From assembly GCA_038883775.1 (NCBI GenBank), contig JAVZLM010000005.1:109634-173633 (forward strand): a DNA stretch of 64,000 nucleotides, given 5' to 3'. This DNA is from Candidatus Bathyarchaeia archaeon (GTDB taxonomy: Archaea; Thermoproteota; Bathyarchaeia; Bathyarchaeales; Bathycorpusculaceae). Below the pieces are notes generated by a model, which made no database searches, was not told the origin of the DNA, and saw only the letters and a program-made list of their open reading frames with translations. Of the stretch, positions 1 to 19,664 are shown in pieces. A program made the position numbers and the translations under genes. Position 1 is the first letter of the stretch, and each line of letters begins with the position of its first letter.

Positions 1-663
1 GGCGGTCAACTTTCAGAAATTGCAAGAATCTTTGAAACACTGTATAAAATTGGAATGGATCACGATGCTGAATTAATTGAAATGAACCCGCTGGTGGAAA
101 CCGTTGATGGAAAATTTGTAGCAGCAGACGCCCGCATAATAATTGATGATAACGCTTTATTCCGCCACCAAGAATACAAAAAGAGACTTTTAGAAGGCGA
201 AAGCGAACTAACCCCAGAAGAAATAGAAGCCATAAAAAACGACCTAGCCTACGTCAAACTAGACGGAAACATAGGCGTTATAGGCAACGGAGCAGGTCTT
301 GTAATGGCAACCTTGGACACAATTCAATATTATGGCGGAAAACCAGCCAACTTCTTAGATGTGGGCGGAGGAGCACCAGCAGAAAAAATCGCCACAGCCC
401 TAAAAATAGTGCTTTTAGACCCAAATGTTAAGACGCTTTTCATAAACATTTTAGGCGGAATAACAAGATGCGACGAAGTTGCAAAGGGAATACTAGAGGC
501 GAAAATAAAAGTTGGCGTAACAAAACCCATGGTTATTAGGCTTGTAGGCACAAATGAGGAAGAAGGAAAAAGGATACTGAAAGAAGCTGGAATCCACGTT
601 TTAGAAAGCATGGAAGAAGCCGCACAAAAAGCAGTCGAAATCTCAAAGCATGGAGGAGAATAA
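1..663 (+). CDS. sucC: Succinyl-CoA synthetase beta subunit (5' partial)
   Basis: Frame is open from base 1. Motifs [28 protein letters not shown] and [10 protein letters not shown]; followed by the alpha subunit. Confidence 0.95.
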
Positions 664-664
664 T

Positions 665-1525
665 TTGGGAATAATAATAGGAAAAGATACACGCGCCATA
701 GTTCAAGGAATAACAGGAGCCCAAGGAAGCTTTCACACAAAACTCATGCTTGAATATGGAACAAAAATAGTGGCGGGAGTAACTCCTGGAAAAGGTGGAA
801 CCCAAGTTCATGGAATTCCAGTTTATGATACTGTGAAAGAAGCCCAAGAAAAGCATTCAGCCAACGCCTCAATAATTTTTGTTCCAGCCCCCTTCGCTGC
901 AGATGCAGCCCTAGAAGCGCTTGAAAATGGGATAAGAACTATTGTGATAATAACGGAGCACATCCCAATAAAAGACGCAATAAACCTAATGGCAGCCGCA
1001 AAACAACTAAAAGCAACAATAATCGGACCAAACACGCCTGGCATAATCACGCCAGAAGAAAGCAAACTTGGAATAATGCCAGCCCACATTTTCAAAAAAG
1101 GTAGCATAGGGATGGTTTCAAGAAGCGGAACCCTAACATACGAAATAGCAGCAAGCCTAACAAAGAAAGGTTTGGGACAATCCACATGCCTAGGCTTGGG
1201 AGGAGACCCAATAACGGGTTTAAACTTCATAGATGCATTAAAAATGTTTAAAGAAGACCCTCAAACAAATGCTGTGGTCTTGATTGGAGAGATAGGCGGA
1301 AACCTCGAAGAACTCGCCGCAGAATATATACAAAAAGAAAGATATTCAAAGCCAGTTGTAGCCTTCATAGCTGGCCGCTCCGCTCCCCCTGGGAAACGCA
1401 TGGGGCATGCTGGAGCAATAGTGATGGGAAAAGCTGGAACTGCGGAAAGCAAAATAGATGCCTTCAAAAAAGCCGGTGTGAAAGTGGCTGAAAAACCAAG
1501 CGACGTAGCAGAATTGCTGAAATGA
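665..1525 (+). CDS. sucD: Succinyl-CoA synthetase alpha subunit
   Basis: [22 protein letters not shown] and catalytic-His motif MGHAGA. Likely TTG start at 665 after GGAGGAG. Confidence 0.95.
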
Positions 1526-1628
1526 ATTCGCAGTCGGAAAAACTGTAATGAGGCACTCATTAAAAATGCAAAAAGTATATTTTCCAGTATAATATCTCAC
1601 TTTTAGCAATTCATTAGAGGAAAACAAA

Positions 1629-1790
1629 ATGCCAATAATGGATCCGCTTAAAAAAACTCTCGCCCAGAAACACAGATTATATATGAAAATATGCAGAGAA
1701 TGCGGCGCCAGAAATGCTGCAACCGCAGTTAAATGCAGAAAATGCCGAAGCAAAAACCTACGTTGGAAGAAAAGAGAACTCGTAAAGTAA
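1629..1790 (+). CDS. rpl40e: 50S ribosomal protein eL40
   Basis: Not in the ORF track. Manual translation MPIMDPLKKTLAQKHRLYMKICRECGARNAATAVKCRKCRSKNLRWKKRELVK has the eL40 C4 zinc finger. Confidence 0.93.
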   Translation: MPIMDPLKKTLAQKHRLYMKICRECGARNAATAVKCRKCRSKNLRWKKRELVK

Positions 1791-1870
1791 TTTTCCTCTA
1801 ACTTCTCTACTCAGTTGATTGGTTATTGAATGCGAAAATTACATATATGATAAATTCCATATTTATAAAA

Positions 1871-1927
1871 TAGGCTGTTCGAAGATTAAAAACTTTTATA
1901 TATAACTGTCATATTACTATTATTTGG
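1871..1927 (+). repeat. Left terminal inverted repeat
   Basis: 45/57 identity by hand alignment to the reverse complement of 13142-13198; first 19 nt identical. Confidence 0.9.
1889..1906 (+). promoter_or_regulatory. BRE/TATA-like box inside left TIR (transposase promoter)
   Basis: AAAACTTTTATATATAA: purine run followed by a TTTATATA archaeal TATA box, facing inward. Confidence 0.55.
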
Positions 1928-1994
1928 TTGCCATATGGCTATTATATAATCCCAGAAGGATGGAAAACCACCCCTCTGGAGGAGTTGACAACCC

Positions 1995-2999
1995 GTGGTA
2001 GCGAGCCTCAACTCCAATATGCCCAGTCATATTCAGAGTGATAAATGTCTTTCGTTAGAGTTTTTGTTTGACAATGTGGATTTTTTGTTTGTTTGGAAGA
2101 TTGTTATGAAAAAGTATCATTTGCGTGGGAGACCTCATGACCCTATTGCTATGTTTAAGGCTTTGCTTTTGAAGGAGATGAGGCAGTTTTCTTCTCGTCG
2201 GAAATTGGTGGAGTTTCTTAGGCGTGATTCTTTTTGGTTGAGAAAGTGTGGTTTTGAGCAGCCGCCGAGCCATAATAGTTTTTCTGATTTTGTTGATAGG
2301 GTTGGGGCAGATGCTACTGAGCAGCTTTTCTATCATTTGGTCAATGAAATAAGGAAACTTAAGAAGATTGGGGAAATCGTCTCAATAGACTCCACACCTT
2401 TGAAAGCATATGCACATTTTTGGAAGAATAGGGAATGCTCTGACCCTGATGCCAAGTGGGGATATAGTCCTACGGCGGAGTGGGTTTTCGGTTATAAAGT
2501 TCACTTAGCCGTTGATGCAGATTCAGAACTTCCTTTGGCATTTATTGTTACACCAGCCAATATTTATGATAGTGTAGAATATCCTGAACTTTTAAACAAA
2601 CTGATTCAGATGGGAATACAGCCAAAAATAGTTCTTGCGGACGCAGGATACGACTCCAAGAAAAACTATCTGCTAACTCTAAAATGTGGAGCTACTCCAA
2701 TCATTGCACTTAACAAGCGAAAAATGAAGAGAAGGAAAACAAGGGATTTCGAACGTATCTTGCCGATAAAACGAAAAAGTGAACGTTGGAAGTCTCTTTA
2801 CAGAAAGAGAAGCAGTGCTGAAAGAGTCATTTCACGGCTGAAAGAAGAGTTAGCTTTGAGAGACGTAAAAGTGAGAGGATTGAACAATGTGCGAATTCAC
2901 GTAGCATTCTCTTTAATAGCAATGTTAACCGTAGCCCTCGTTGCCTTAAAAACCGGAAATGGACACAAAGCGACAAGTGTAAACTCATTTAGATTCTAA
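1995..2999 (+). CDS. DDE transposase (IS4/IS5/IS1182-like, DDE_Tnp_1 type)
   Basis: IDST (D1), DPDAKWG..GYKVHLAVD, LADAGYD (D2) and Y-x2-R-x3-E-x6-K (YRKRSSAERVISRLK). N-terminal RGRP..P..MFKALLL DUF772-like region. Confidence 0.92.
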   Translation: MVASLNSNMPSHIQSDKCLSLEFLFDNVDFLFVWKIVMKKYHLRGRPHDPIAMFKALLLKEMRQFSSRRKLVEFLRRDSFWLRKCGFEQPPSHNSFSDFVDRVGADATEQLFYHLVNEIRKLKKIGEIVSIDSTPLKAYAHFWKNRECSDPDAKWGYSPTAEWVFGYKVHLAVDADSELPLAFIVTPANIYDSVEYPELLNKLIQMGIQPKIVLADAGYDSKKNYLLTLKCGATPIIALNKRKMKRRKTRDFERILPIKRKSERWKSLYRKRSSAERVISRLKEELALRDVKVRGLNNVRIHVAFSLIAMLTVALVALKTGNGHKATSVNSFRF

Positions 3000-3307
3000 T
3001 CGGTATTCATAGTTACTCATGCACGAGGAGCTGCCAGTATTTTACTCATTGTTTGGAGTGTGCAAGAAAACCAGAGAAAAACATTATTGAAGGTGTGGGC
3101 ACACATTAGATATTCGATTGGTTAATGCAAAGGCGAAAAGCAATTCGCTTACTTTAAATTCTACTAAATATTACTTGTAACAGGTGTTTTATGCTCTATT
3201 ACACTATCCTATTTTGAGAAAGCTTAAAATCCTTTTTTGAGATAACTTTATAAGCAACTCTGTATCTTATTTTAGGATGTAAATAAGCATAACAACGTAA
3301 GTAGGAG

Positions 3308-3985
3308 GTGAAAATCTTGCCGAAGTTAGGAAATATGGTGTATCCATATATTAAACTTAGCCGTGCTATTGAAATCGCCAGACGTATTTGTGAGAGTCCA
3401 TACAAAGGAGAAATCAGCGTTAGTGGTCTTGCTCAAGAACTTAAAATGTCAGAGAAAGGCGGAGGTTTCCTTTATCTCGTAGCTTCCTTGCGAGACTATG
3501 GATTAGTTGAGGGGACGGGCACTCTTAGAGCGACGGAAATAGCTAAGAAAATCGTAGCAGGAACTCCTGAAGAAATGAGTAAGAGTCGAGTAGAAAGCTT
3601 CCTAAAAGTTGAGCTTTTTAAGAGTCTTAAAGAGAAAATAGGCACAGAGGTTCCAGAAATAGAGCAGTTTTCTGTCATTTTAAGAGATTTAACGAAAGCA
3701 GACCCGCTTAAAGTAAAAAATGTCGCAGAAACAATCCGTAATCTTTATTTAGACGGAGTTCCTTACATTAAAGCACTTGAAGAGGCTAAAAAAGAGGAGA
3801 TTAAAATGACCAAAGAAACTGCAACAGCCCAAGTTGACATATCTACGGCAAAACCGCCTATGCTTGAAGAACTGAAGTTTGGAGAAAATGTTAGAATATG
3901 GCTTCCCAAAGAGAACATCAAAGAGGAATGGAAAAAAGCCAAAAAGATGGTTGATATCTATCTCGGTATTGAAGAGGGGAGATAA
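3308..3985 (+). CDS. Hypothetical protein with N-terminal winged-HTH-like region
   Basis: 225-aa ORF; GLAQELKMSEKGGGF..VASLRDYGLVE helix-turn-helix/wing pattern. Confidence 0.7.
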   Translation: MKILPKLGNMVYPYIKLSRAIEIARRICESPYKGEISVSGLAQELKMSEKGGGFLYLVASLRDYGLVEGTGTLRATEIAKKIVAGTPEEMSKSRVESFLKVELFKSLKEKIGTEVPEIEQFSVILRDLTKADPLKVKNVAETIRNLYLDGVPYIKALEEAKKEEIKMTKETATAQVDISTAKPPMLEELKFGENVRIWLPKENIKEEWKKAKKMVDIYLGIEEGR

Positions 3986-4100
3986 TTCCTCTTTTCCCTT
4001 AATTTTTTGTAGAGGCATACCTCTTGAAAATTTAAAGCCCATTTTTAGAGTGAACGAATTTTCAATCTTAGTTTGGATGCAAAAGCAGGAAAAAGAGAGA

Positions 4101-4376
4101 TTAATAAATTTTGAGTTTTCCTTTAATCTGATTAACAGTGTCTCTAATCTCTTTTAGGTCCTTTTGGATTTCATCTACATCTTTTGAAACCAGTGATACT
4201 TTCATGTATAAAGCACCTGCTCCAAAGGCGACTGAAATCCAAGGCACATTAGCCAAAATATCCTCAAATGGAGGGTCTAATCTCAACAACATTTTGATAA
4301 TCCATATAACGAGTATAGCAAAAGCTATAAGGAAAATCAAATTACTAAGCGATTCTTGCTTTTTTCTTCTCGCCAT
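4101..4376 (-). CDS. Small membrane protein (2 TM plus C-terminal coiled coil)
   Basis: Two hydrophobic segments then heptads VDEIQKDLKEIRDTVNQIKGKL; AGGTGA SD upstream. Confidence 0.7.
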   Translation of the reverse strand: MARRKKQESLSNLIFLIAFAILVIWIIKMLLRLDPPFEDILANVPWISVAFGAGALYMKVSLVSKDVDEIQKDLKEIRDTVNQIKGKLKIY

Positions 4377-4465
4377 TTTATCACCTAAATCTATTCACTC
4401 TATTTTAACAATTAACATTTTCTGAAAATCATAAAATATCTTAACATTGCCTATGAAAAACCAGT

Positions 4466-4726
4466 TCAAGTATCTCCCAGAGCAATTTCTTCTACAATAT
4501 CTTGTGGGGATTTTAATTGGTAGGTTCTTTTTCTGGCATCGTTGGGGTCTAAAAATGTTTTAAGCCATCCGTGCTTTCTTAAATCAGACAAAATCACACT
4601 GACAGTCTTATCGTCTTTCTCTTTTAGCAGACGCCTTGCCTCGTCAAAATCGAAATTTTGATTCTTTTTCTCTTTCCAAAGCTTGGCATAGCGAAGAAAT
4701 AACCATTTAGGAAGGGGGTTAGTCAT
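4466..4726 (-). CDS. Small MarR-like winged-helix regulator
   Basis: VSVILSDLRKHGWL...DPNDARKRTYQL is a MarR-type wing (DxR) motif. Confidence 0.75.
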   Translation of the reverse strand: MTNPLPKWLFLRYAKLWKEKKNQNFDFDEARRLLKEKDDKTVSVILSDLRKHGWLKTFLDPNDARKRTYQLKSPQDIVEEIALGDT

Positions 4727-4778
4727 GTTTATCCCAGTCCTTTAGTTATCTGTTAAGCGCTATATTTATATACTACGT

Positions 4779-4802
4779 AAGCTATTAGCTTGTATGACAA
4801 GC
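4779..4802. promoter_or_regulatory. Two overlapping palindromes, candidate operator
   Basis: AAGCTA-T-TAGCTT (4779-4791) and GCTTGT-ATG-ACAAGC (4788-4802), just downstream of TATATTTATATA in a divergent promoter region. Confidence 0.45.
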
Positions 4803-4820
4803 AAACAACAAACCATATGA

Positions 4821-5984
4821 GTGAAATTAATGAGCGTTGAAAGATGTCCTGTTTGCGGAGGCTTTCCAAGTCGATATTTAATTAATGATGCGAATCTGAA
4901 GTTTCTGAAGGATTGCGCAACTAAGGGTCAACTGGATGAAGCCATCTCTGTTGCTCGAATCCTTTGGAGCAAGTTTCCAGAACTGCGGTTAAACGCTGAT
5001 TCAAAGATAATTATAGAGGGTGTATCAGCTAATATGCTCAGAGCACTACAAGCCCAAATAAACGAAACATTGGAACCAGCAAAAATGTTTGCTGAGAAGC
5101 TTCCTGAACTTGTTTACAAGCTACCAGTGGAAATGGATAAGACCATGGATGAGAAGATTGAAGAAATGAGAACTTTATTAGCTAAGGAGTTTAAGGAGAC
5201 ACTTAACAACATGGGATTTCCCGAACCCGAGCAACTCAAGTTACTGAGCCAACTTATGCCTGCTGTTTTACCTCTTCTACAAGAATTATTGATGCTTCAA
5301 AAAGTTCCAAGCGAAAAAGGGAAAACTGGAGAATTAGAACTACTAAAGGAATTGAAAGACGTTTTCCCAGAAGATGACTACAAACATGTTGGCGGTCCAG
5401 GAGCAACGGATATCATCGCCACCCCCGTATATGGTGGTTTTCAACTCAGTCAAAGAGTGCTCATCGAATCAAAGAAAAACAACAGCGGTTGGAGCAGAGA
5501 CTTTGTAGATGAAGTCAGAAGGCATATGCAAGCCTATTCAAATCGTTTCGCTATACTCGCTGTAGAAGTTATGCCAAAAGGAGCAAGAGGTTTTCTCATC
5601 GAACATTTCAATGAAGGTGCCATTTTGGTCACAAGTAGAAAAGATGTTTGCATAGCCTATGGAGCTCTTAGGGCTGTTTTCATCGCTACGTATCCTTTCG
5701 AAGTTAGTGCTGGAGACCTTCGGAAACTTTTTGAAGAAAAAAGAATCGAAGAAGCTATAAAAGACGCTTTGAATTATCAAGAATATCTAAAAAAGATTAA
5801 AACAAAATCAGCAAGCATAATTTTAAATGCAAAAAATATTGTTGAGCTTTCTGACGACCTGAACACTCATTTAAGATTTTGCCTCACCGAACTTCAGAAA
5901 AGAATAAGAAATGCAGTTCAAGAAATCGTAGAAGCTCGACCAACTACTAAAGGTGGTTCACCAAACATATTAAAAAGGAGTTAA
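4821..5984 (+). CDS. DUF2130/RmuC-like coiled-coil PD-(D/E)XK nuclease-fold protein
   Basis: KGKTGELEL..LKDVFPED, TDII...LIESKK..GWSRDF and FAILAVEVMPKG; N-terminal CPVC. Confidence 0.7.
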   Translation: MKLMSVERCPVCGGFPSRYLINDANLKFLKDCATKGQLDEAISVARILWSKFPELRLNADSKIIIEGVSANMLRALQAQINETLEPAKMFAEKLPELVYKLPVEMDKTMDEKIEEMRTLLAKEFKETLNNMGFPEPEQLKLLSQLMPAVLPLLQELLMLQKVPSEKGKTGELELLKELKDVFPEDDYKHVGGPGATDIIATPVYGGFQLSQRVLIESKKNNSGWSRDFVDEVRRHMQAYSNRFAILAVEVMPKGARGFLIEHFNEGAILVTSRKDVCIAYGALRAVFIATYPFEVSAGDLRKLFEEKRIEEAIKDALNYQEYLKKIKTKSASIILNAKNIVELSDDLNTHLRFCLTELQKRIRNAVQEIVEARPTTKGGSPNILKRS

Positions 5985-6025
5985 CGTTACCTTAGTAAGT
6001 GTAAGAAGGAGGATTTAGAAAAACA

Positions 6026-7270
6026 TTGCTTGAGGCTCCAAGGTCTATGGCTGAGCCGATTCTTGACTGGATTCTGAACGGCATACCTGTGCGTGTTGAC
6101 GTGAAACTTTTTGATGATGTTAGTCTTATTTATGAAGCCCAACTCGCCAAAATGGAGCTATCAAAATGGTGGGACGACCTTGAAAGTTTTAGAAAGAGAA
6201 CAGCATATTTCGAAGAAGTTAACGGGAAAAAGTCCTACCACTATTATATTTCAGACATCAAAGGGAAGGGGCAGATAGGGAGAACATGTCAATATCTTAC
6301 TCATTGGTATTATCCTTATAAAGCAAAGTTTCATCCTCAAATGATTAAAGCAATAATTAACTGGATGGGTCTAAAGAGACCTCAAAAACTGCTTGACCCA
6401 TTCGTGGGAAGTGGAACTGCTTTGGTTGAAGCCAAAACAATGGGTGTAGACAGCATAGGAATAGACATCAATCCCGTTTGCACTTTGATGTCCAGAGTTA
6501 AATGCGACCTTCTGGACTTATCTCCAGAGGATTTAAATTCTGTTCCAAGGGAAAAAGCTTTCCATTTCTTTGACAGAAAAAGAAAAAAACTCGGGCACAC
6601 AAGCCTTGAAAAATTTGTAGAACATAATACAGAGCAAATTATTCAGCTTTCATCAGATGAAAGAGTGGCTCGATTCTACGAACTATCCTATCTTTATGCA
6701 TTATCTGATTTCACCTATGTAAAGAGAGACTTATGGAAAGGGTTTAACGAAAATATTGATGCCGTTATTGACACCGTGGAAAGGTTCAGTAAATTGAAAG
6801 AGGAGCTGAATCTTGAGTTAGGGAATGTTGATGTAAGGGAAGGAGACGCAAGAAAGCTACCTTTTAGAGATGAGGAAATAGATGGAATTGTTACTTCCCC
6901 ACCTTACAGTATTGCTGTCGATTACATTAAACAAGATTTACACGCTTTGGACTATCTAAACATTGATATCGCTCAACTTGTCAATAACATGATAGGGCTC
7001 AGAGGAAAGGGCGAAGAAAGAATCGTCAACTACTTCGTGGACATGCTTGCTGCATTTAGAGAGATGTATCGAGTTTTAAAGAAAGGAGCATTTTGCGTGA
7101 TTCTAATAGGAGACGTGACATATAATGGGAAACGGTTACCTATACATAAAAAGTATATTGAATTTGCTGAAACCGTTGGTTTCTCTCATATTGGAATAAT
7201 AAAGCGACCTATACTTGGCGGTTACGCCAGACTCAGGTATGAATACATTTTAATGTTCCAAAAATTATAG
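6026..7270 (+). CDS. DNA amino-methyltransferase (probably N4-cytosine, alpha motif order)
   Basis: THWYYPYKAKFHPQ, motif I DPFVGSGT, GIDINP, motif IV TSPPY and MYRVLKKG. Confidence 0.9.
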   Translation: MLEAPRSMAEPILDWILNGIPVRVDVKLFDDVSLIYEAQLAKMELSKWWDDLESFRKRTAYFEEVNGKKSYHYYISDIKGKGQIGRTCQYLTHWYYPYKAKFHPQMIKAIINWMGLKRPQKLLDPFVGSGTALVEAKTMGVDSIGIDINPVCTLMSRVKCDLLDLSPEDLNSVPREKAFHFFDRKRKKLGHTSLEKFVEHNTEQIIQLSSDERVARFYELSYLYALSDFTYVKRDLWKGFNENIDAVIDTVERFSKLKEELNLELGNVDVREGDARKLPFRDEEIDGIVTSPPYSIAVDYIKQDLHALDYLNIDIAQLVNNMIGLRGKGEERIVNYFVDMLAAFREMYRVLKKGAFCVILIGDVTYNGKRLPIHKKYIEFAETVGFSHIGIIKRPILGGYARLRYEYILMFQKL

Positions 7271-8341
7271 TCTGCTTAAGCCTTGAACATGAGGATAATA
7301 GGAAATAAGTCTTTTTTCTTGTTCTTTCTCGTCCTTCAAAAGATTTCTAACAAATGGTTTTTTTCTTACGCAATTGTAGTGATAGTGAAGTTCCTTTTCC
7401 TCAGAGGGTTTGAGCACTCCTTTATACGTTATGTAATTGCACTTTCTGAAATTTTTGCATTCTTTTTTGCAGCTTATTTTTATATCTTCAATCTTCTGAG
7501 AGTAGTCAGAAAATCTGTTTATGATTTCGTCGCAATAAAGAATCCATTTTTCGCATATTGGGCAACGCAACGGAACAGTGTTTGGGACACGAGCTACCAC
7601 GACCGGAATAGAGGTTCTTGATGAAAAATCGAATATGTGGTCGGGAGTTTTTTGAATGGCTTGCTTCACTTCCACTCCAAAAATTCGACCATTTTTGACT
7701 ATTAGAAAGTCTGGAGCTATAGAATGTGAATCATGAGATAACAATCTTTGATTGAGAAGCATTGGAATAACGTATCCAAAATTGTGCCTTATCAGGTAAG
7801 CATAAACAATAAGCTCAATGGCTGCGCCAACAGATTTGGGAAGAAGGGAGTCCACAGCATAGTAAAGCTTCTTTGTTTTCTTATCTTTGTATGACAAGTC
7901 CTCCTTGAACTTTTTAGCTTCTTCGTAGATTTTTTCAGCTTCTTCATCTTCGAAAAAGTATGGAATATTCTGTTTTTTCATGAAATCCATAAGGCGTTTT
8001 CTTATTGAGAAACAAGCATAGGTAGTAACTTGTTCTTGAATTAGAAGCTGGTTAACGACGTATAATATCATTTTAAGATACGATTTTCGGTTAGTCTTGT
8101 GAAAGCCCCAGATAGAACCTCGAGATACTAAAATATACATAAGGTAGTCGTATAGAATCATTTGTCTGCCATCTTTACCAACATAAAGCTCTTTAGAGAA
8201 TTTCTCATAACCTTCAAGTGAATCAATCTTTTTACGCATCATCATGTAATCTTGGTCATGTGTGGCAAAAAATTGGTCAACAATCAGAAGATGTTTTGCT
8301 GTTGATAATGCCCTTTCCAAAACTTTATCCAAAACATTCAC
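7265..8341 (-). CDS. Putative PD-(D/E)XK restriction endonuclease with Cys-rich C-terminus
   Basis: GAAIELIV...APDFLIVK...GVEVKQ; CPIC and CKKECKNFRKC..HYHYNC. Convergent with the MTase (6-nt overlap). Confidence 0.7.
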   Translation of the reverse strand: MNVLDKVLERALSTAKHLLIVDQFFATHDQDYMMMRKKIDSLEGYEKFSKELYVGKDGRQMILYDYLMYILVSRGSIWGFHKTNRKSYLKMILYVVNQLLIQEQVTTYACFSIRKRLMDFMKKQNIPYFFEDEEAEKIYEEAKKFKEDLSYKDKKTKKLYYAVDSLLPKSVGAAIELIVYAYLIRHNFGYVIPMLLNQRLLSHDSHSIAPDFLIVKNGRIFGVEVKQAIQKTPDHIFDFSSRTSIPVVVARVPNTVPLRCPICEKWILYCDEIINRFSDYSQKIEDIKISCKKECKNFRKCNYITYKGVLKPSEEKELHYHYNCVRKKPFVRNLLKDEKEQEKRLISYYPHVQGLSRL

Positions 8342-8371
8342 CTACAAAGAATTTGTTTGCGGGATAGTTGC

Positions 8372-9136
8372 CTAAAATAATTTCGTTTGTTGTCCTTTGT
8401 CTCTTCTCCATTCATCACTGGCTTTTTTGATTATTCGCAAAATTGCTTCGTAGGTTCCAACTCCTCCAAGTTTATCCCACATTTCCTTTCCGATTAGCAC
8501 CTCTTTTTCCATATCCATAATTCGTTTCGTAAAACTCCACCTATACAAATGCCGTTCAACGTAAGGATTATATGTCAAACCAAGAAATGCTTGAGCTCTT
8601 TTTCCTTCATGAGCTACCAAAAACAATAGCATCTTCCTTTTCGATTCAGCACATTGGTCAAGATTAGGTAAAGGAGCCTTAATTTCCATGAACAAAGGTC
8701 CATCTTCATGGTCACCTACATACAAATCAGCTATTATCCTAACAGAAGTTTTTTCAGAGCTGGAAACTGACATTATTTCCCTCATTTCCTCTATGTGATT
8801 TGGTCTTCGCATTCCGCTACGAAGGCTATTCACTATAGTGTCAACCATTGTGACTTTTGCACCGTCAAGGTCAGTTAAAATTTCATATTCCCTGTGAACA
8901 TCTGAATATCGTCCCTTCGCAACAATCTCCGCCACTGCTGGCAGAAAACGAGTCCCCACAGTTGTCTCAACTGAACTTACCAAATCTCCATGAAGTATAG
9001 CTTCATCGGTCAAAAACGCACTATGAAAAGGTTTAGCCTCCTTAACTTCTTCCAGAGAACGCCGAGCCTTAATAGAAAGGTCCTCAAGAACTCTCTTAAC
9101 TAAATCTGAAATTTCCTTTTCCGTTTTCTCGTCCAA
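8372..9136 (-). CDS. TdeIII/MjaII-family type II restriction endonuclease
   Basis: KPFH..L, IADLY...MEIKAPLPNLDQCAESKRKML, YNPY and VLIGKEMWDKLGG.GTYE. Confidence 0.85.
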   Translation of the reverse strand: MDEKTEKEISDLVKRVLEDLSIKARRSLEEVKEAKPFHSAFLTDEAILHGDLVSSVETTVGTRFLPAVAEIVAKGRYSDVHREYEILTDLDGAKVTMVDTIVNSLRSGMRRPNHIEEMREIMSVSSSEKTSVRIIADLYVGDHEDGPLFMEIKAPLPNLDQCAESKRKMLLFLVAHEGKRAQAFLGLTYNPYVERHLYRWSFTKRIMDMEKEVLIGKEMWDKLGGVGTYEAILRIIKKASDEWRRDKGQQTKLF

Positions 9137-9261
9137 GTATTTATCACTAATCTAACAAATCGTCTGACCAGATTTATAAGAACTATCCCTCGGAATAATA
9201 ACAACGCTAACTTAGAAAGTTTTATTTGCTGAGTGAAAAAGATTTAGACCTTGTGATTTAT

Positions 9262-9696
9262 ATGACGTTAAGAATAACTACAAGAAATAGAAACAAGCTT
9301 TCACAAGAGTTGCATGATTGGGTTATTGAAATGACTGTGGAGCGTCTTTATGGTAAATTTAGAGAGGCAGGCAGAAAAATATACACAAATCCAAATCAAC
9401 AGAAGAACTTTGCTGTAAATGGTTTCTATCCCGACATTGTGGTCTAAAATCCGGAGACGGAAAAAGTTACATTTATCGATGAAATAGAGACGGAAGTGGG
9501 CGAAATCGAGAAAAATCAATGGGAAGATTTCGCCAAACTTGGAATAGGTTTTTCTGTAACAGTTCCATTGAATGACGTAGAAAATGCCAAGAAAATTATT
9601 AGAGACAACAAAATTAGAGTAACCTCTCTTTGGTCTTATAAAACTGATTACCCGGCAACTAAAAATATAACTTTCAAAGAAGAAACTCTTTCATAA
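9262..9696 (+). pseudogene. PD-(D/E)XK-like small nuclease gene interrupted by in-frame TAA
   Basis: ORFs 9226-9447 and 9496-9696 share a frame and read ...GFYPDIVV*NPETEKVTFIDEIET... across TAA 9445-9447. Confidence 0.7.
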
Positions 9697-9723
9697 ATGG
9701 TCACAAAAACAAACAAAAAATGG

Positions 9724-9924
9724 TTATTTCGCTTCTTTCTGAGACCATTTTGCTTTAACTGCAAGCAACTCTTGTATATACTCTTCTCTTTTCTTTGCGT
9801 ATTCTTTGATGGCGTTTGCGAAAGCTTTCCCGATGGTATCTTCTAACCCCAACTTAGTTAATTGTCGAGCTAAATTGTAAGCCTCTTCTGGAACCGTTAC
9901 GGATTTATATCCATTTAGAGGCAT
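9724..9924 (-). CDS. Ribbon-helix-helix (CopG/antitoxin-like) protein
   Basis: YKSVTVPEEAYNLA beta-strand/helix pattern; AGGTGG SD upstream. Confidence 0.7.
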   Translation of the reverse strand: MPLNGYKSVTVPEEAYNLARQLTKLGLEDTIGKAFANAIKEYAKKREEYIQELLAVKAKWSQKEAK

Positions 9925-10011
9925 CTAAACCACCTTTGCTATAAATATGTTGAAAAAGTAAATATATGTTATTACCACAAAACCTTAAATCAGTATGGTA
10001 AAAATGGTAAG

Positions 10012-10272
10012 GTGCATATCATGGAAACTGAAGGTTCATCAGACTTTATCATAACAAATGGAAAATACGCAGAAGGTAATAGAATCCTTGTAATCAATCC
10101 AAAGACGAACAAAGGGTTGTATGCAATGCTCAGAAACCTCGAGTTTCTAAGCGAGATTCAACGACCCGGCGATAAAATAAATGTGCACTGCAGAAGTGGC
10201 GTCACCTCAAAGGGCGAATTTGTATTCTGTGACGTTTTCCTAACCAGAGAATTCGCTAACTCTGAGTTCTGA
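10012..10272 (+). CDS. Hypothetical protein
   Basis: 86-aa ORF divergent from the RHH gene; no recognised motif. Confidence 0.5.
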   Translation: MHIMETEGSSDFIITNGKYAEGNRILVINPKTNKGLYAMLRNLEFLSEIQRPGDKINVHCRSGVTSKGEFVFCDVFLTREFANSEF

Positions 10273-10335
10273 TTGAGCGATAGTTGACCGAGTTTTCTAT
10301 TTGCTCGTCCCTGAATGGCTTTCTAAGCACAAAAT

Positions 10336-10926
10336 TTAGATTGAAATGATGTGAATATCCTCTGGTAACTTTGTTATATCGATGAGTGGAGAAACGGTCA
10401 TTATTGCTTGGATTTTAAGGCGTTTTAGTTCTCTAAAAAGGGAAGGGACCATATTTTTGATAAGCCTCTCAAAAGGGTCGTCAGCTATCAAGCATTGGTA
10501 GCCTCTTGTAAGGTTTTGTAAGTTTCCCGTTATGCTTATGGAATCTTGTTTTGGAAACAGTCTTAGCGTTATTGTTCCATTGTTAAATACTCTGTTCGTG
10601 AAATATCGGTGTCTTATACCGAAAGCAAACAGAATAGCTCTTACTATGGTAGATTTGCCACTTCCGCATGTGCCATGAATCAAATTTATCGAGTTTCTGC
10701 AAAAATATGCTTCAAAATTATCAAATGGTCCGACTTTAGTCAATTTCAGTGATTCAATTTGGAAAGGCAAGAAGTATGTTTCTCCGTAAAGGGAGTCTTC
10801 ACAGCCTACTTCAGCCAACAATTTTCGCAAATGTTCTTTAGCTGTTCTTGGTCTTTTTATCTCTAAAGCTTGTCTTAGTTCCTTCTTTTGAGGTCTGGAA
10901 ATACTTGTGTTTTCTGTTTTCTTCAT
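10336..10926 (-). CDS. Minimal ABC/SMC-type P-loop ATPase-like protein
   Basis: IESLKLTKVGPF N-terminal strand, Walker A GTCGSGKST and Walker B/D-loop-like CLIADDPF. Confidence 0.7.
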   Translation of the reverse strand: MKKTENTSISRPQKKELRQALEIKRPRTAKEHLRKLLAEVGCEDSLYGETYFLPFQIESLKLTKVGPFDNFEAYFCRNSINLIHGTCGSGKSTIVRAILFAFGIRHRYFTNRVFNNGTITLRLFPKQDSISITGNLQNLTRGYQCLIADDPFERLIKNMVPSLFRELKRLKIQAIMTVSPLIDITKLPEDIHIISI

Positions 10927-11160
10927 GGAATAAAATAAATTTGACCATGTAAATAAGTTCTTCTTAAGGTTTGATACTATTCACTTCTATGGTTTTTTCT
11001 ATATTGCCTTGGACATTAGAGTTTAGAAGGAAAAGAGAAAATCTTAGAAAAGAATGTGGCGTTGTCATACTAAATGCTCAGATGAATTATTTCAGTTTGG
11101 CGAGAGAGTATGGAGATAAATTTTTTAACTATTGATGAGCAAGATTAGTGTGGTAGAAGT

Positions 11161-11865
11161 ATGGAGTTAATTCTTAAAGAAGCAGCAAAGGCTTTTGGAA
11201 AGGAAGTAGCAAAAGAAGTAACGCCAATAATAGTGAAGAAATTTTTAGGGAAAACACAAAAACTATCTGTAAAGTTCGGGTTAGTGTTGACTTTTTATGA
11301 ATATCCATTAATGGATGATGCAATAGCCCTTATAGAAAATTGTATACACAAGTTCAAATGTGGCGTAGGTATGTTGAAGATTGATGACGTAACATTTGAT
11401 TATTACATTAGCTTTGAACTTGAAGAGTTTGTGAGCCCCGATATTGACATTCTAATTCAAGAAGAGCCTGAATACGCAATCTCTGACCAATTTATTTCCT
11501 TGCTTGAGATTCTGCTCTCTCCTCATCTAAAGAAAGAAGTCCATGACAAGAAAGAAGTTGAAAATGTCTTCTTTTCCGGGTTTAAGCTGTTAGATGGAAT
11601 TACAAAGTGTTTAGAAAATGAAGAAATCGCTGCGACAGTATTAAAAATTCGTTCAGCAGTAAAATTGCTTGGTATTGAATCTGAGTTAAATTTTGCACAG
11701 AATATTTTTACGGAGTTGTCTAAAAAAATTGCGAAATTAAAATTGCCTTACAGCCCATACGTCTCTTTTTCGCCAATTTCAAAAATAGAAGGACAAATTG
11801 GGCAAGTTATCGTATCACTCAAAGATGCGGGGGTGTTAATGGCTATAATAGATGCGATAACATGA
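11161..11865 (+). CDS. Hypothetical protein
   Basis: 234-aa ORF, one nucleotide from the next ORF. Confidence 0.65.
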   Translation: MELILKEAAKAFGKEVAKEVTPIIVKKFLGKTQKLSVKFGLVLTFYEYPLMDDAIALIENCIHKFKCGVGMLKIDDVTFDYYISFELEEFVSPDIDILIQEEPEYAISDQFISLLEILLSPHLKKEVHDKKEVENVFFSGFKLLDGITKCLENEEIAATVLKIRSAVKLLGIESELNFAQNIFTELSKKIAKLKLPYSPYVSFSPISKIEGQIGQVIVSLKDAGVLMAIIDAIT

Positions 11866-11866
11866 G

Positions 11867-12634
11867 GTGAAGATTTTGGTATTTTGGACGTGTAGAGTTT
11901 TTAAAATAAATCCCAAATTTGATAGTATTGTAAAGGATGTTATTTTGAAAACGGGAAGTTACCAATATGGTAAAGTTGAAAACAAAAATCTTTTCTTATA
12001 CATTGACAGAATTCAGGAGACTTTTGGTGGATGGGCTAAATTAATTGAGACTTACATCGATAGTCCTCGCAGGGTATTTAATAGAGAAGAAGGTTATGTT
12101 GCCATAAAAGAAACAGTTCCATTTAACATTTGTCTATTTGAAAAATCAAGCATCCCAAATTTCTTGGCTATTTTTGGTTCAAGTTACAATATTCCAGTTC
12201 TGACCTATGCTCTTAAGGTGATAATTTCTGAAAGGGGACGGTCTAAAGGTCAGATTCCAGACTCATTAATTGTGTTCTCTCCTTTATTTAAACTGAATTT
12301 CAGGTTGAAAGGAAAAGAAAATGAATTAAGTAAATATCTCTCTAACATCAGAGAAATTAGCGTTAGAGAAATTAAAGACATGTATGTCCATGCAGCGAGC
12401 CTCAAAGGACTATTATTGGAATTAAGTGAAGAATATCAAAAATATGTCCGTGACAGTGAGATATCTGGAAGAATAAATTATTTCGGCGTAAACGTTGAAG
12501 GCAGAGTTATGATGTTGTCTTCTGAAGGAAAAATATGGACGAGACAGGGAAAAAATAATGTCGAACCGGAAATTGTTAAAATGATTCTCGAGGTCTTAGA
12601 TAAATGTGATGCAATTCATGTTGTAGAGCAATGA
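11867..12634 (+). CDS. Hypothetical protein
   Basis: 255-aa ORF with GTG start immediately after the upstream stop. Confidence 0.65.
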   Translation: MKILVFWTCRVFKINPKFDSIVKDVILKTGSYQYGKVENKNLFLYIDRIQETFGGWAKLIETYIDSPRRVFNREEGYVAIKETVPFNICLFEKSSIPNFLAIFGSSYNIPVLTYALKVIISERGRSKGQIPDSLIVFSPLFKLNFRLKGKENELSKYLSNIREISVREIKDMYVHAASLKGLLLELSEEYQKYVRDSEISGRINYFGVNVEGRVMMLSSEGKIWTRQGKNNVEPEIVKMILEVLDKCDAIHVVEQ

Positions 12635-12671
12635 AAATTGTGCTCATGTTTTAACGGTTGTTAGTGAGAGT

Positions 12672-12881
12672 TTGATAAGAATGTTTGAGCATGCTGAAAA
12701 GGTTGTAAAAAAATTGACGAAAGAAAACATGGAACATTTGAGACGCCAGATAGATGAGTGCTTGAAGATGGCAATCAAGTTTGATGAAACGGGTAAAGCA
12801 AAATATTTTGTTAAGATGAAGAATTCTTGCCAAACCTTTCTCCAGATGCTAAATGAGTTGGAGAAGAAAGCTGATTCTTAG
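12672..12881 (+). CDS. Small helical hypothetical protein
   Basis: 69-aa ORF; 3' end overlaps the convergent AbrB-like gene. Confidence 0.45.
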   Translation: MIRMFEHAEKVVKKLTKENMEHLRRQIDECLKMAIKFDETGKAKYFVKMKNSCQTFLQMLNELEKKADS

Positions 12882-13120
12882 CCTTCCACGATTTTTATTT
12901 TCTTTCCTCTAATCACAAAGCCATCCGGCGACACTTTGATTTTCGGCTCTTCTACCGACGTTATTATCATTAGCTTGCGATATGGGTCAATAGTAATTTT
13001 AACTGTATCTCCAGCCTTAAACGGATAATTAGAATCCTGAACCATAACAGACGGAATAACCAAATACTGAGTATGTGCATTCTTACTTTGCACAATCTTA
13101 ACTTCAGCCTCTAAAACCAT
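12878..13120 (-). CDS. AbrB/MazE/SpoVT-like DNA-binding protein
   Basis: KIVQSKNAHTQYLVIPS...PFKAGDTVKITID swapped-hairpin pattern; GGTGG SD upstream. Confidence 0.7.
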   Translation of the reverse strand: MVLEAEVKIVQSKNAHTQYLVIPSVMVQDSNYPFKAGDTVKITIDPYRKLMIITSVEEPKIKVSPDGFVIRGKKIKIVEG

Positions 13121-13141
13121 ACAACAACCACCAACAGACTC

Positions 13142-13198
13142 CCAAATAACAACTGTATGAAAACTATATAAAAACTTTATTAATCTTCGAACAGCCTA
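13142..13198 (-). repeat. Right terminal inverted repeat
   Basis: Reverse complement reads TAGGCTGTTCGAAGATTAATAAAGTTTTTATATAGTTTTCATACAGTTGTTATTTGG, matching 1871-1927. Confidence 0.9.
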
Positions 13199-13234
13199 AT
13201 AAAATTATAAAATGCAGGTTTTGAGGTGCAAGCA

Positions 13235-13288
13235 GTGGCTTGTAAGACTAAGAAGAAAACCAAGAAAAAAGCGAAGAAAACGAAATAA
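13235..13288 (+). CDS. Putative Lys-rich micropeptide MACKTKKKTKKKAKKTK
   Basis: GAGGTG SD (13223-13228) six nt before GTG; TTATAAAA upstream. Confidence 0.35.
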   Translation: MACKTKKKTKKKAKKTK

Positions 13289-13358
13289 AAAATCACATTA
13301 ATCTCCTCATTTCCCCATTTTTATTTGAAAGAAAAACGTGCGCTCAACTCTCTTATAT

Positions 13359-13973
13359 TTAAAGAATTTTTGATAAAGTTTCAAGGTTGAAAATGGTGTT
13401 TGCACAGCCATTCTTTATCAGAGGAACGGCTTGACCAGCAATTCCCAAATAGTTTAATGCCTCACCGCTCAATCTTATTTCTTCGCCACAAGCAACTCCA
13501 ACAACCCCATCATAATGATTATTTTTCAAAATTTTCTGAACACAAGAACCACCAGGCAATATGTAAACGTCATAACCTTTTTTCTCGGCGAGAACCACTG
13601 CTCTGTTAATTAGGCAGTCTGGGGAACAATGCGCACAACTGTAAGAGGGAATATGGGGGTCAAAAGTTGCCTTACAACGATTATCCATATATTTCCTAGA
13701 ACAATGTGGCAGAAAAAGAGCCCGTTTTCTCGTCTGCTCAAACCGTTTCCTTTCTAAAAGGTTTCTGGCTTGCATGTCTATAAGGTCTTGAAGAAGAAAA
13801 ACAGCATCAGACAAGTTGAGACCCGTAATCTCCTGAATCCTAAACTTTTTAATGATATCCTGCATTGTTTTGCTAACCTTTTTATGAACACCCTTTTGAA
13901 ATCCAACTCTAGCAACTTCGGTAAAGAAGAAACGAGGAACCCTTGAAAGGTCAAAGGTAAACTTGTATGGCAT
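13359..13973 (-). CDS. DUF116 domain-containing protein
   Basis: LFLPHC, CAHCSPDC, YILPGGS, GVVGVAC and VPLIKNGC. Confidence 0.88.
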   Translation of the reverse strand: MPYKFTFDLSRVPRFFFTEVARVGFQKGVHKKVSKTMQDIIKKFRIQEITGLNLSDAVFLLQDLIDMQARNLLERKRFEQTRKRALFLPHCSRKYMDNRCKATFDPHIPSYSCAHCSPDCLINRAVVLAEKKGYDVYILPGGSCVQKILKNNHYDGVVGVACGEEIRLSGEALNYLGIAGQAVPLIKNGCANTIFNLETLSKIL

Positions 13974-14060
13974 AAAGTATTCTATAAATAACAAACCTTT
14001 AAAATTAACTGTTGCTTATACTCATACTCTAAGACATTGAAACAAAAAGGAGGAAAAACG

Positions 14061-14468
14061 TTGGGCATACTTGACAGATTTAGAAAGAAAAAAGAAGAAC
14101 AAAAGAAAACGGATACAGAAACTGTAAAGACAATAACTGAACTTGAACAAATCTGCGAAGACGACAAAGAAACATATGAAGCATTACACAATACCATGTT
14201 CCTTGATCCTACAAAGATAACAACATCCATGAAAGAAGCAGCTGAAAACGCCAAAAAATTTGAGAAAGAAAAAGATTTTGTCAGAGCCAAAGCATGGTAT
14301 GAGATTGCAGGCGGCTTAGCCATCTATGAAGGAAACGTGAAAAAAGTTGTTGAATATTTTAGTGAATGCCAAAAACTCTCTCCAAATACAGAATATCTAA
14401 TCTTGAAAAATCCGGAGAAGGCTGTAGCTAAGGCTCAAGAATATTATAAAAAATATTTGAAAGCTTAA
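14061..14468 (+). CDS. Hypothetical helical (TPR-like) protein
   Basis: TTG start after GGAGG; AKAWYEIAGGLAIYEG helical-repeat pattern. Confidence 0.65.
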   Translation: MGILDRFRKKKEEQKKTDTETVKTITELEQICEDDKETYEALHNTMFLDPTKITTSMKEAAENAKKFEKEKDFVRAKAWYEIAGGLAIYEGNVKKVVEYFSECQKLSPNTEYLILKNPEKAVAKAQEYYKKYLKA

Positions 14469-14481
14469 GCAAGTATCACTG

Positions 14482-14913
14482 TTATTTTTCTGTTTCTTCC
14501 GAATAGCCCAAAAGCTCTCTTAGAGATTTTACTTCTTCCCGGAGCATGTGTACTTCACTTTCAAGAGCGTTAACCCTTGATTCCGCAACCTTCTTTAATT
14601 TTTCAATTTCAACCATCAAATTTGCCCGTTCCGTCTCCAGAGTCTTTATTTTTTCACGGAGATTCTTTAAAGTCTGCATAAGTTCTCCCTTTATACCCTT
14701 AATTCTTTCAACCATATTTTTAATACTTACTCTCTCCTCAACCCTTGCCTCAGCGGTTAAAGCAGACCTAAATCTGGCTTTACAATTTGGACATTCAAAT
14801 ATTCCTATAACAAGCCCAGTCTCTTCACCCTTCCCCAACGGTTTCTTAGGAGAAACCATCCAAGTTTTAGTTGGTGCGGCCACTTCAACACCACATCTTG
14901 GACACTTAACCAA
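14482..14913 (-). CDS. Cren7-like zinc-ribbon chromatin domain fused to a long coiled coil
   Basis: KCPRCG..PTKTWMVSPK...VIGIFECPNCKARFR resembles Cren7 (P.K.W.L.PK..IGLF..P..G..FR); about 80 aa of heptads follow. Confidence 0.7.
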   Translation of the reverse strand: MVKCPRCGVEVAAPTKTWMVSPKKPLGKGEETGLVIGIFECPNCKARFRSALTAEARVEERVSIKNMVERIKGIKGELMQTLKNLREKIKTLETERANLMVEIEKLKKVAESRVNALESEVHMLREEVKSLRELLGYSEETEK

Positions 14914-15024
14914 CCATAAACCCCCATAATAATTATCATTTAAAGTTAAAATGTGTTTTGCATTCAAATGAGGATAAATTATTAATTGCAAACTTGAATA
15001 AAATGAAAAAGGGAGTGAAGGGTT

Positions 15025-15318
15025 ATGAAGGCTGTGGAAATGAAAACGAAATTGGAAGAAAGAATTAGGGCTTTAGAAAAGGAGAAAAGTATGCTTTTGG
15101 AGGAGATAGGGCAGCTTAAAGAAATTGTGGAGTTAAGTGAGAAAGCAAAAGAGTTAGAGAACGAAGTAAACAAACTCAAAAAGGAAGCTAAAGCGTTAAA
15201 AGAAAGGATCCCACAAGAATTTCTCCAAGAACTCCGTGAGGTTACATCCCCTTTAGAGGGAGAAAAAGAAGAGGACAGCGAAGAATGTCCTAGCTGCGAG
15301 GAAGAAGAACTTCTTTAG
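15025..15318 (+). CDS. Coiled-coil protein with acidic CPSC tail
   Basis: Continuous heptads; ends EECPSCEEEELL. Confidence 0.7.
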   Translation: MKAVEMKTKLEERIRALEKEKSMLLEEIGQLKEIVELSEKAKELENEVNKLKKEAKALKERIPQEFLQELREVTSPLEGEKEEDSEECPSCEEEELL

Positions 15319-15370
15319 AAAAGCACTTGCGCAAGAGTTGAGTAGATGCATAGAAAAAAGAAGAGAAATT

Positions 15371-17714: not shown

Positions 17715-17730
17715 TCACGATTTTCGCCAA

Positions 17731-19650: not shown

Positions 19651-19664
19651 GATTTTAACTTCCC

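Follow-up and report, generated by a model that had tools for sequence, protein, structure and literature searches.

One transposase, a distant repeat and an exchangeable cargo bay: a probable family of cargo-carrying DDE transposons in Bathyarchaeia

How can an archaeal chromosome take up more than 11 kb of DNA as a single mobile unit, if only one transposase gene is found in the unit and the partner of its terminal repeat lies far away, beyond a row of other genes? This question is raised by a 64,000-nucleotide stretch from the genome of a Candidatus Bathyarchaeia archaeon (assembly GCA_038883775.1, contig JAVZLM010000005.1, positions 109,634 to 173,633 of the forward strand), which is hereafter called the window, its genome being called G000. 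A first-pass annotation, made from the letters and their open reading frames (ORFs) without database searches, had proposed here a large transposon moved by one transposase, and we have followed up this proposal by comparison with related genomes and metagenomes. The segment at 1871-13198 (11,328 bp), situated in the chromosome of a 1.69-Mb draft genome of 28 contigs, was very probably inserted as one transposon and belongs to a family in which a fixed frame of two modules, one with a DDE transposase gene and the other with an 80-amino-acid (aa) gene termed sm80, encloses an exchangeable cargo bay. In function it is a transporter insertion sequence (IS) or unit transposon, a known kind of element, here in archaea. 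The corresponding proposal of the first pass, that of an unusually large archaeal element of this kind, is supported from two sides: the unit is absent in three congeners, and eight related complete elements were found.

Where does the element begin and end? The arms at 1871-1927 (plus orientation) and 13142-13198 (minus orientation) form a 57-nt inverted repeat, of which 45 positions (79%) are complementary, and this is the longest inverted pair within 1-20000 by a wide margin. The outer 19 nt of both arms are perfect (TAGGCTGTTCGAAGATTAA). The 17-mer GGCTGTTCGAAGATTAA occurs at only two sites in the 64-kb window even if up to three mismatches are tolerated, against a chance expectation of 0.25, and two matches were reached in 3 of 100 shuffles. 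Immediately outside the arms stand two copies of ATAAAA, at 1865-1870 and 13199-13204, which are read as the target-site duplication on the ground of an empty-site contig and, for the left copy, also of the norm of the family, both to be described below. On the repeats and on their ATAAAA flanks, a re-reading of the sequence agrees with the first-pass annotation. When nucleotide sequences are compared with those of related elements from three further genomes of Bathyarchaeia (G035, G285 and G065), homology starts at T1871, and across 16 aligned ends the tip TAGGC.GTTC is invariant, as is TATA at positions 29-32 of both ends. These TATA-like boxes, one of them in the inner part of the left repeat upstream of the transposase gene and the other in the right repeat upstream of sm80, may well be archaeal promoters that face inward and serve the two core genes, and it is probably because such a promoter lies in each repeat that the similarity of the arms reaches as far as 57 nt.

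Was the segment between these ends inserted as a whole? The insertion spot is the intergenic spacer between sucD and a DUF116 gene; the left flank carries the genes for succinyl-CoA ligase beta and alpha, and the right flank the DUF116 gene and a TFIIB gene. These flanking genes are of the housekeeping kind, and TFIIB identifies the host as archaeal. Positions 1-18000 of the window were searched against four genomes of the same genus (G001-G004). One contig of G001 matches 1-1869 and then 13205-16678, with alignments overlapping by 7 nt; G003 matches 1-1869 and 13209-13620, with an overlap of 4 nt; G004 matches 1-1794 and 13349-16660, the two being 7 nt apart; and the G002 contig stops within the left flank. 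The whole 11,328-bp segment, cargo, repeats and transposase together, is absent at this site in the three congeners G001, G003 and G004, whose flanks are adjacent and free of cargo, so that none of them carries the cargo here without repeats and transposase. Their fused flanks hold one TTATAAA(A)/TTAAAAA where G000 reads ...TTATAAAA[element]ATAAAATTATAAAA....

Logan contigs of four hot-spring metagenome runs (X1-X4) were also compared with positions 1000-14200, with a likeness cut-off of 90%. A contig of X2, a run whose sample and study differ from those of X1, the probable source run, runs from 1864 straight into 13199, leaving out 11,334 nt and keeping a single ATAAAA, 7 letters fitting either side. 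This is the empty site with one ATAAAA that the first-pass annotation had suggested to look for. The contig has 94 letters on its shorter side and a depth of 3.4. Shorter-spacer variants, in which 1860 or 1857 is joined to 13203, are found in X2 and X4, and the G004-like empty form is present in X1 and X3. Could the filled site be an assembly artefact, namely a chimeric contig to which the element was misjoined at a repeat? The draft is metagenome-assembled, in 28 contigs with 5.1% contamination, and such a suspicion is natural, but the explanation is scarcely conceivable, since a separate Logan assembly of X1 crosses both junctions by contigs of 7,997 nt (over 1749-9745) and 956 nt (over 12464-13419) with 0 differences each, and neither the ATAAAA duplication nor the exact fit to the empty sites of the congeners is expected from a chimera. 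X1 may itself be the source run, and its support of the junctions does not count as an independent sample.

Near-identical elements occupy other sites as well. Record 25 of X4 contains the element from 1870 inward at about 96% identity (36 differences over 967 nt), where the 29 letters in front of it do not resemble the flank in the window, and record 16 of X2 continues for 430 nt past 13204 with sequence unlike the window; it is from these foreign flanks that the different positions are known. In this genome the element was probably inserted recently. As a separate observation, six metagenome contigs (L060, L061, L062, L064, L074 and L076) begin 119-127 nt outside the repeat tip; breaks at such a distance, approximately one assembler k-mer, may arise from branching of the assembly graph at the boundary of a polymorphic insertion.

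Several other placements of the ends were tried and given up. The first pass had left open that the ends read as GGCTG.. with a duplication of only TA; homology begins at T1871 and the X2 empty-site contig fits 6 bp, so this alternative is not supported. An 8-bp duplication, TTATAAAA, deserved to be weighed for this copy on the grounds of the single TTATAAA(A) at the empty sites of the congeners and of an 8-bp duplication in the G285 element; it was rejected because the duplication is 6 bp in all six metagenomic elements and because the X2 contig joins 1864 to 13199. A possible solo end on contig C7 of the same genome (16/18) was dismissed, as its similarity stops at the motif itself. GC content, too, is of no use as a boundary marker: low GC extends to about 15000, while 13205-16678 is native DNA common to the congeners. 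Over the 1.8 kb outside the right repeat (13205-15000) GC is 0.355-0.383 versus about 0.42 further out, and composition would misplace the boundary of the island because this low-GC part is native.

What kind of enzyme would move such a segment? The transposase gene (1995-2999, plus strand) has an intact frame of 334 aa and matches Pfam DDE_Tnp_1 (E 1.5e-31) and DUF772 (E 1.6e-13). Its NCBIfam scores lie below the cut-offs in all three families compared (172.7 bits against 270 for IS1182, 101.7 against 140 for IS5_4, 55.1 against 115 for IS4_1), so that the term "IS4/IS5-like" used in the first pass holds as a description of the DDE_Tnp_1 fold and not as a family assignment; the closest annotated plasmid genes, labelled ISNCY, are at most 31% identical. 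Its relatives in Bathyarchaeia genomes are 69% (G035), 63% (G285) and 56% (G065) identical, and a scan of the genome contigs with the transposase alignment returned just G035 and G065. In comparison with the 56%-identical G065 protein, D132, D216 and E276 are kept together with Y269-x2-R272-x3-E276-x6-K283, which we take to be the Y-R-E-K signature (Y-x2-R-x3-E-x6-K).

A genome search found no second transposase, the transposase region occurring in one copy with a distant 57-nt arm, and the right end of the element matches the left by this arm alone, with no IS copy at each end as a composite transposon would have. When the left repeat is aligned locally to 2951-3500, directly after the transposase stop, the score is 9, compared with 11.8 +/- 1.7 for shuffles and 34 for the true right repeat; the first-pass statement that no repeat follows the transposase is borne out, and none follows the transposase gene in G035, G285 or G065 either. 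Homology between elements ends 0-6 nt past the transposase stop. Rfam and tRNA scans gave nothing in or beside the element (the tRNA scan covering 1-16000), and among the ORFs scanned there were no tyrosine or serine recombinase, integrase or Cas1 families.

Is the far repeat, then, just a look-alike that was used by chance? In the available portions of two reports, TnSha1 (IS1272, IS1182 family; PMC4923244) and TnCO-1 of Thermoanaerobacter kivui (PMC12056078) resemble the present element in that a single transposase mobilises passengers via a distant repeat. One-ended capture of this sort, in which a complete IS would use a chance distant look-alike of its repeat and drag host DNA along, is thus something that bacterial IS1182-family elements do according to these portions, and the best NCBIfam match of our transposase is IS1182, below the cut-off as it is. 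However, capture of this kind needs the IS's own second repeat beside the transposase: TnSha1 and TnCO-1 are described there as keeping a complete IS with both repeats in addition to a degenerate surrogate, whereas the present element has no proximal repeat, its homology with relatives ending at the stop codon, and has a true far partner. This partner agrees in 19/19 positions at the tip and in 45/57 over its whole length, too well for a degenerate surrogate, and it is always accompanied by the conserved sm80. The cargo is absent from the congeners and is not local host DNA. Again on the available text, TnSha1 makes no target duplication and uses hairpin targets, unlike the 6-bp duplication here. 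One-ended capture is most improbable as the origin of this element.

Relatives of the same build exist. Eight further complete elements of about 4.5-10.2 kb agree with this one in their termini (TAGGCTGT...) and carry sm80 just inside one end and a related DDE transposase just inside the other. Together with the present copy (G000, 11,328 bp), seven of the nine have a perfect 6-bp target duplication: ATAAAA here, TCTTAA in L060 (10,244 bp), ATTGTA in L100 (9,891 bp), TCTATT in L078 (8,074 bp), TTATTA in L088 (6,305 bp), ACATAT in L105 (5,802 bp) and ATCAAA in L083 (4,479 bp). It is this proportion that makes the ATAAAA reading the norm of the family. The other two are the 5,558-bp element of G285 (contig C26, tips at 2539 and 8096) with a perfect 8-bp duplication, ATACCCAA, and the 4,582-bp element of G035 (contig C4, tips at 26408 and 30989) with a decayed transposase and a 5-bp direct repeat; their partner tips were located by a degenerate repeat-tip search. 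In the six complete metagenomic elements the inverted partner repeat lies beyond a transposase which is 53-93% identical to that of G000. "Partners" in L074 and L076, found as 10-mers with one mismatch, were discarded as chance matches (16/60 and 19/60 identity). In G065 only 276 nt of contig remain beyond the transposase stop. At this contig end (C147; L057:4950-4983) the sequence is CTGTCTCTTATACACATCT..., which we presume to be a Nextera adapter, and the far end of the G065 element was lost to the assembly artefact.

In all nine complete elements the transposase and the far repeat are separated by cargo, with the partner repeat 4.5-11.3 kb away, so that no copy ends right after its transposase. 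This bears on another possibility, that of nesting, in which an ordinary IS of about 1.2-1.5 kb came first and an island of about 10 kb then landed between its transposase stop and its right repeat. Compact IS relatives of 1.1-1.26 kb do exist in the same archaeal family, and in the present copy a copy-specific segment, 3005-4483, follows directly after the transposase. Against these points stands the fact that the cargo found in this position in 9/9 members varies in size and content from one to another, and that no cargo-free member was met: among 80 sm80 loci there is no case of sm80 directly beside a transposase, the smallest cargo being about 3 kb (L083). Nor is there a second set of junctions, an integrase, a tRNA gene or an internal repeat pair around the cargo, and close relatives share large parts of it as a mosaic. 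Nesting is therefore very unlikely, and we keep to the reading of one transposon inserted as a unit.

Then, how are the compact IS related to this family? Among the loci with transposases that are 35-40% identical to ours, 11 of the 12 near-full-length ones prove to be compact IS: they measure 1,101-1,258 bp, and the gene stands immediately between repeats such as GCGCGCTAGGCTGTTTAGAAATT. The compact IS of Bathyarchaeia (L005, L021, L047-L050 and others) are alike to the present family in the homologous repeat core, TAGGCTGTT..A.A.TTA, and in this level of transposase identity; they differ in having the transposase only, with an extra outer GCGCGC on the repeats and with neither sm80 nor cargo. 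In a maximum-likelihood tree of 20 transposases, eight of the cargo clade and twelve compact ones are split by a branch with 100/100 support. This points to an archaeal IS lineage that became a cargo carrier: its repeats lost the outer GCGCGC, sm80 was gained and the cargo bay was opened. Beside the decayed element of G035, on the same contig C4 (L004:17-496), we also noticed an inverted repeat whose 44-nt arms are 84% complementary and stand 392 nt apart, with tips beginning with GCGCGC; possibly it is a miniature inverted-repeat transposable element of the compact IS group.

The second core gene, sm80, was overlooked in the first pass, whose description of what the letters themselves show is correct on each point. 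It lies at 12878-13120 on the minus strand, adjoins the right repeat and is read inward from it. Homologues at the same position are 76% (G035) and 51% (G285) identical. Scanning metagenomes with an sm80 alignment turned up 102 relatives, and 80 loci were retained. At 50 of the 76 that have enough upstream sequence, the core TAGGCTGT (at most one mismatch) is found at a distance of 64-117 nt upstream of the gene, the chance rate being about 0.035 per locus by our own estimate. Ten positions are invariant across 40 sequences. A scan of viral contigs with sm80 found nothing. In a class-level search, 63 of 401 genomes matched at E <= 1e-5, mostly by short and weak AbrB-like matches, and seven other genomes matched at E < 1e-14; no claim on prevalence is made because these matches are mostly weak.

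What is sm80? Its Pfam matches are weak and below threshold: B3-like RE_NgoFVII_C in 9 of 40 sequences and MazE_antitoxin in 7 of 40 (best E 0.014). Foldseek with the sm80 model returned nothing at E <= 0.001, its top match being the archaeal SpoVT-AbrB protein 2l66 at a not significant E of 1.6, and among PDB sequences the sm80 profile had no match better than E 0.43. The C-terminal domain of the PAPS reductase in L100, which is homologous to sm80 (52% identity), does reach MazE_antitoxin with 28.4 bits against a cut-off of 24.7. A homodimer model of sm80 scored 0.60 while the best control scored 0.00, a mark which is reached by 20 of 30 solved pairs and by 1 of 23 single chains; the interface of the model is heavily interdigitated, the partner has a predicted local distance difference test value (pLDDT) of 71-77, and at least 86% of the contacts are common to the runs. 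This pass may reflect likeness to solved dimers. Probably, sm80 is an AbrB/MazE-like dimeric DNA-binding protein, as far as profile matches and models can tell, and it may act as a regulator of the transposase or as a helper that pairs the distant ends. As a side observation, where PAPS reductase is part of the cargo (L100:17161-18675, minus strand, and L054:3734-5219), the reductase carries, or precedes, an sm80-homologous domain; since this reductase-linked domain matches sm80, elements of the PAPS-reductase type hold two sm80-like domains.

From these parts a mechanism can be drawn. The frame consists of a left module of about 1.13 kb, made of the repeat and the gene of the 334-aa DDE transposase, and a right module of about 0.33 kb, made of the 80-aa sm80 and the repeat, each core gene being read inward from the TATA-like box in its own repeat, with a cargo bay of about 3-10 kb exchangeable between them. 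The transposase would bind the termini of about 19 bp, identical at both ends, bring the ends together across the cargo and then cut, by cut-and-paste or by copying out, and the ends would be joined to a target cut with a 6-bp stagger; the target sites observed are A/T-rich. Most likely sm80, as a predicted intertwined dimer, would bind DNA at or near the ends, either regulating the transposase or helping architecturally in the pairing. A bolder version can be only tentatively offered, and we hold it to be less likely than not: that this is the first defined archaeal family of cargo-carrying DDE transposons, that it is a main vehicle by which restriction-modification (R-M) and other defence genes are swapped among hot-spring and sediment Bathyarchaeia, and that sm80 is a new transposition partner which enables or controls long-range pairing of ends. 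If it were true, the partner role of sm80 would explain why cargo is found in the sm80-bearing clade alone while the sister IS stay at 1.2 kb.

Does the element still move? It might be a fossil, which moved once as a unit and is now immobile here, the family being spread by homologous recombination or by other vehicles. It is present as a single copy in this genome, the transposase genes of the G035 and G285 copies are broken, and no circle or excision junction was seen in the contigs of the runs. On the other side, this copy has an unbroken transposase frame and has kept both 19-bp tips and the 6-bp duplication; filled, empty and differently placed copies at 95-99% identity coexist in hot-spring metagenomes; and many contigs break about 120-128 nt outside the repeat, as might be expected of polymorphic insertions. 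We think the fossil explanation unlikely on balance. Several points weigh against the main reading, that of one transposon inserted as a unit, and should be told together. No transposition has been observed and all the evidence is comparative, with one copy in this genome. The empty spacer of the congeners is about 8 nt shorter than predicted, and the exact pre-insertion sequence is that of a single X2 contig; the empty sites and the other sites come from Logan contigs of depth 2-5 rather than from raw reads, and the empty allele may be ancestral rather than a product of excision. In two of the nine elements the duplication is not 6 bp but 8 bp (G285) or 5 bp (G035). Since sm80 or the repeat led to the eight others, members without sm80 could have escaped, although cargo-free ones with sm80 would show and none did. 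The transposase tree is unrooted and its branches are long, and the fold assignment of sm80 is weak, with sub-threshold Pfam matches and a pLDDT of 65 for the AlphaFold monomer.

To what extent is the cargo really exchangeable? In an all-against-all blastp comparison of the ORFs from three elements (G000, G035 and G285), the only common genes are the transposase and sm80. The cargo of G035 has a SacI-type enzyme, a D12 methylase and a helix-turn-helix (HTH) protein, and that of G285 has PAPS_reduct, ParB_N and a proteasome-like protein. L078 carries a C5 methylase, an HhH-GPD glycosylase and an HATPase_c_3 protein that PADLOC scored as REase_II; L088 carries an N6/N4 methylase, a BsaWI-type enzyme, NYN, EVE and HTH; L100 carries HerA, NurA, TPR and PAPS_reduct; and L083 and L060 carry N6/N4 methylases. 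A DNA methyltransferase is present in six of the nine complete elements, with a recognisable restriction enzyme alongside in four of these six, and the remaining three have sets of the PAPS-reductase or HerA/NurA type. The same ends thus enclose different cargo across the family, as the first-pass annotation had proposed to check. Closer relatives are informative in another way. L064 retains 4480-9184, the R-M block, at 86% identity, while L060 has the transposase, the stretch 11100-13198 and the DUF2130 gene in common with G000 and carries other genes where G000 has the methylase, the TdeIII gene and the 358-aa ORF, all described below; as judged from their sequences, closely related copies are mosaics.

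A wider census took 96 ORFs of at least 150 aa in the first 4.5 kb after sm80 at 45 of the 50 repeat-bearing loci, for most of which the ends of the element are undefined. It gave N6_N4_Mtase 6 times, N6_Mtase 3, C5 methylase 2, TdeIII 1, MjaI 1, HNH 2, HATPase_c_3 2, HerA 2 and TIR_2 1, as well as nitroreductase 2 and peptidase M20 2, with most ORFs having no match. We read the cargo at these loci as rich in methylases, and the census is no proof of a "defence" function. It was also observed that in L078 (12754-14530) a C5 cytosine methyltransferase gene adjoins that of the HhH-GPD glycosylase within one element. A methanogen plasmid is said to pair such genes, the glycosylase reportedly repairing the T/G mismatches that arise by deamination of 5-methylcytosine.

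Bacterial R-M gene pairs travel as cargo of mobile elements. What differs here from such mobile R-M units of bacteria is a defined single-transposase family in archaea, in which TdeIII, SacI, BsaWI and C5 modules occupy the same bay. Among the known systems, the transporter IS of ISfinder and TnCentral are the most natural comparison: like them, the present element has one transposase gene, terminal repeats, a target duplication, passengers and no second IS copy, and unlike the known ones it has a DDE_Tnp_1 transposase below the NCBIfam cut-offs, an archaeal host, cargo of up to about 9.8 kb and sm80 at the far end. According to the TnCentral preprint, transporter IS are confined to the IS1595 and IS66 families, both bacterial. 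Casposons, self-synthesising transposons of archaea and bacteria, are alike, in the available portions of a survey (PMC6563490), in having terminal inverted repeats, target duplications and several genes, among them those of methyltransferases and nucleases; they differ in moving by Cas1 and in encoding PolB, neither family being present among the ORFs scanned here. Aloposons of Heimdallarchaeia are also archaeal transposons with cargo genes, and, as far as the available part of their description goes, they are distinguished by integration at tRNA sites, tandem giant genes and a ParA-like ATPase, none of which is found in this element. [quoted passage not shown] Our literature searches, outside of which lay the supplementary tables of IS-like elements of PMC6563490 and PMC11529989, found no description of this family, and in the literature searched it is so far undescribed. 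The family provides a concrete route by which R-M and defence genes can spread horizontally in a class of archaea that is abundant and uncultured. With its ends and two small genes it is a compact system, open to testing, which could also be turned into a genetic tool for archaea, and TAGGCTGT.. termini together with sm80 can serve in annotation as a signature that gives the exact limits of defence islands.

What, finally, does the present copy carry? The segment directly after the transposase, 3005-4483, contains a 225-aa ORF at 3308-3985 and several ORFs of less than 100 aa, none of which was matched by Pfam, NCBIfam, PADLOC or PHROG. The elements L060 and L064, which are 86-89% identical, lack this segment. 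The contigs of X2-X4 give no coverage over approximately 3205-4527, which alone is not evidence of absence, and the segment is regarded as copy-specific because L060 and L064 show the same gap. Next comes a gene for a 387-aa DUF2130 protein (4821-5984, plus strand; Pfam DUF2130, E 2.9e-8), common to L060 and L064. It is followed by a gene for a type II DNA methyltransferase of 414 aa (6026-7270, plus strand; Pfam N6_N4_Mtase, E 1.6e-15; PADLOC MTase_II, E 6.8e-29). A 254-aa type II restriction endonuclease of the TdeIII family is encoded at 8372-9136 on the minus strand (Pfam RE_TdeIII, E 2.3e-49, aligned over positions 3-240 of the 242 in the profile; PADLOC REase_II, E 1.2e-26). The ORF between these two genes (7265-8341, minus strand; 358 aa) is conserved in L064 and has no match in Pfam, NCBIfam, PADLOC or PHROG, with Atlas leads of 0.84-0.86 that are sub-threshold. 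The TdeIII-type enzyme and the N6_N4_Mtase, with one ORF between them, fit the description of a predicted type II R-M pair, for which "defence island" is a fair label. An R-M pair may stabilise the element that carries it by post-segregational killing. The cargo had been described at first as dominated by nucleases and a methyltransferase; one nuclease, of the TdeIII type, and one methyltransferase have significant family matches in this copy, but a dominance of nucleases is not shown, most of the cargo having no family match.

Toward the right end, a small P-loop protein of 196 aa with an AAA_23/SMC-N-like N-terminus is encoded at 10336-10926 on the minus strand (Pfam AAA_23, E 9e-8), with weak matches to the N-terminal parts of LmuB and PtuA in PADLOC. 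Its 71%-identical homologues in L061 and L068, of 233-255 aa, share the same C-terminal end, and the protein is probably complete because they end at the same place. Two adjacent ORFs of 234 and 255 aa lie at 11161-12634 on the plus strand, within the block 11100-13198 that is 86% identical at the nucleotide level to L060 and L064; neither has a match in Pfam, NCBIfam, PADLOC or PHROGs. Beyond them a 69-aa ORF at 12672-12881 (plus strand) runs toward sm80, with an overlap of 4 nt at the stop of the latter. Within it, 12771-12827 matches two places in G004 at 81-87% identity, one of which adjoins a homologue of the P-loop gene, and the 69-aa ORF may be a further small conserved cargo gene.

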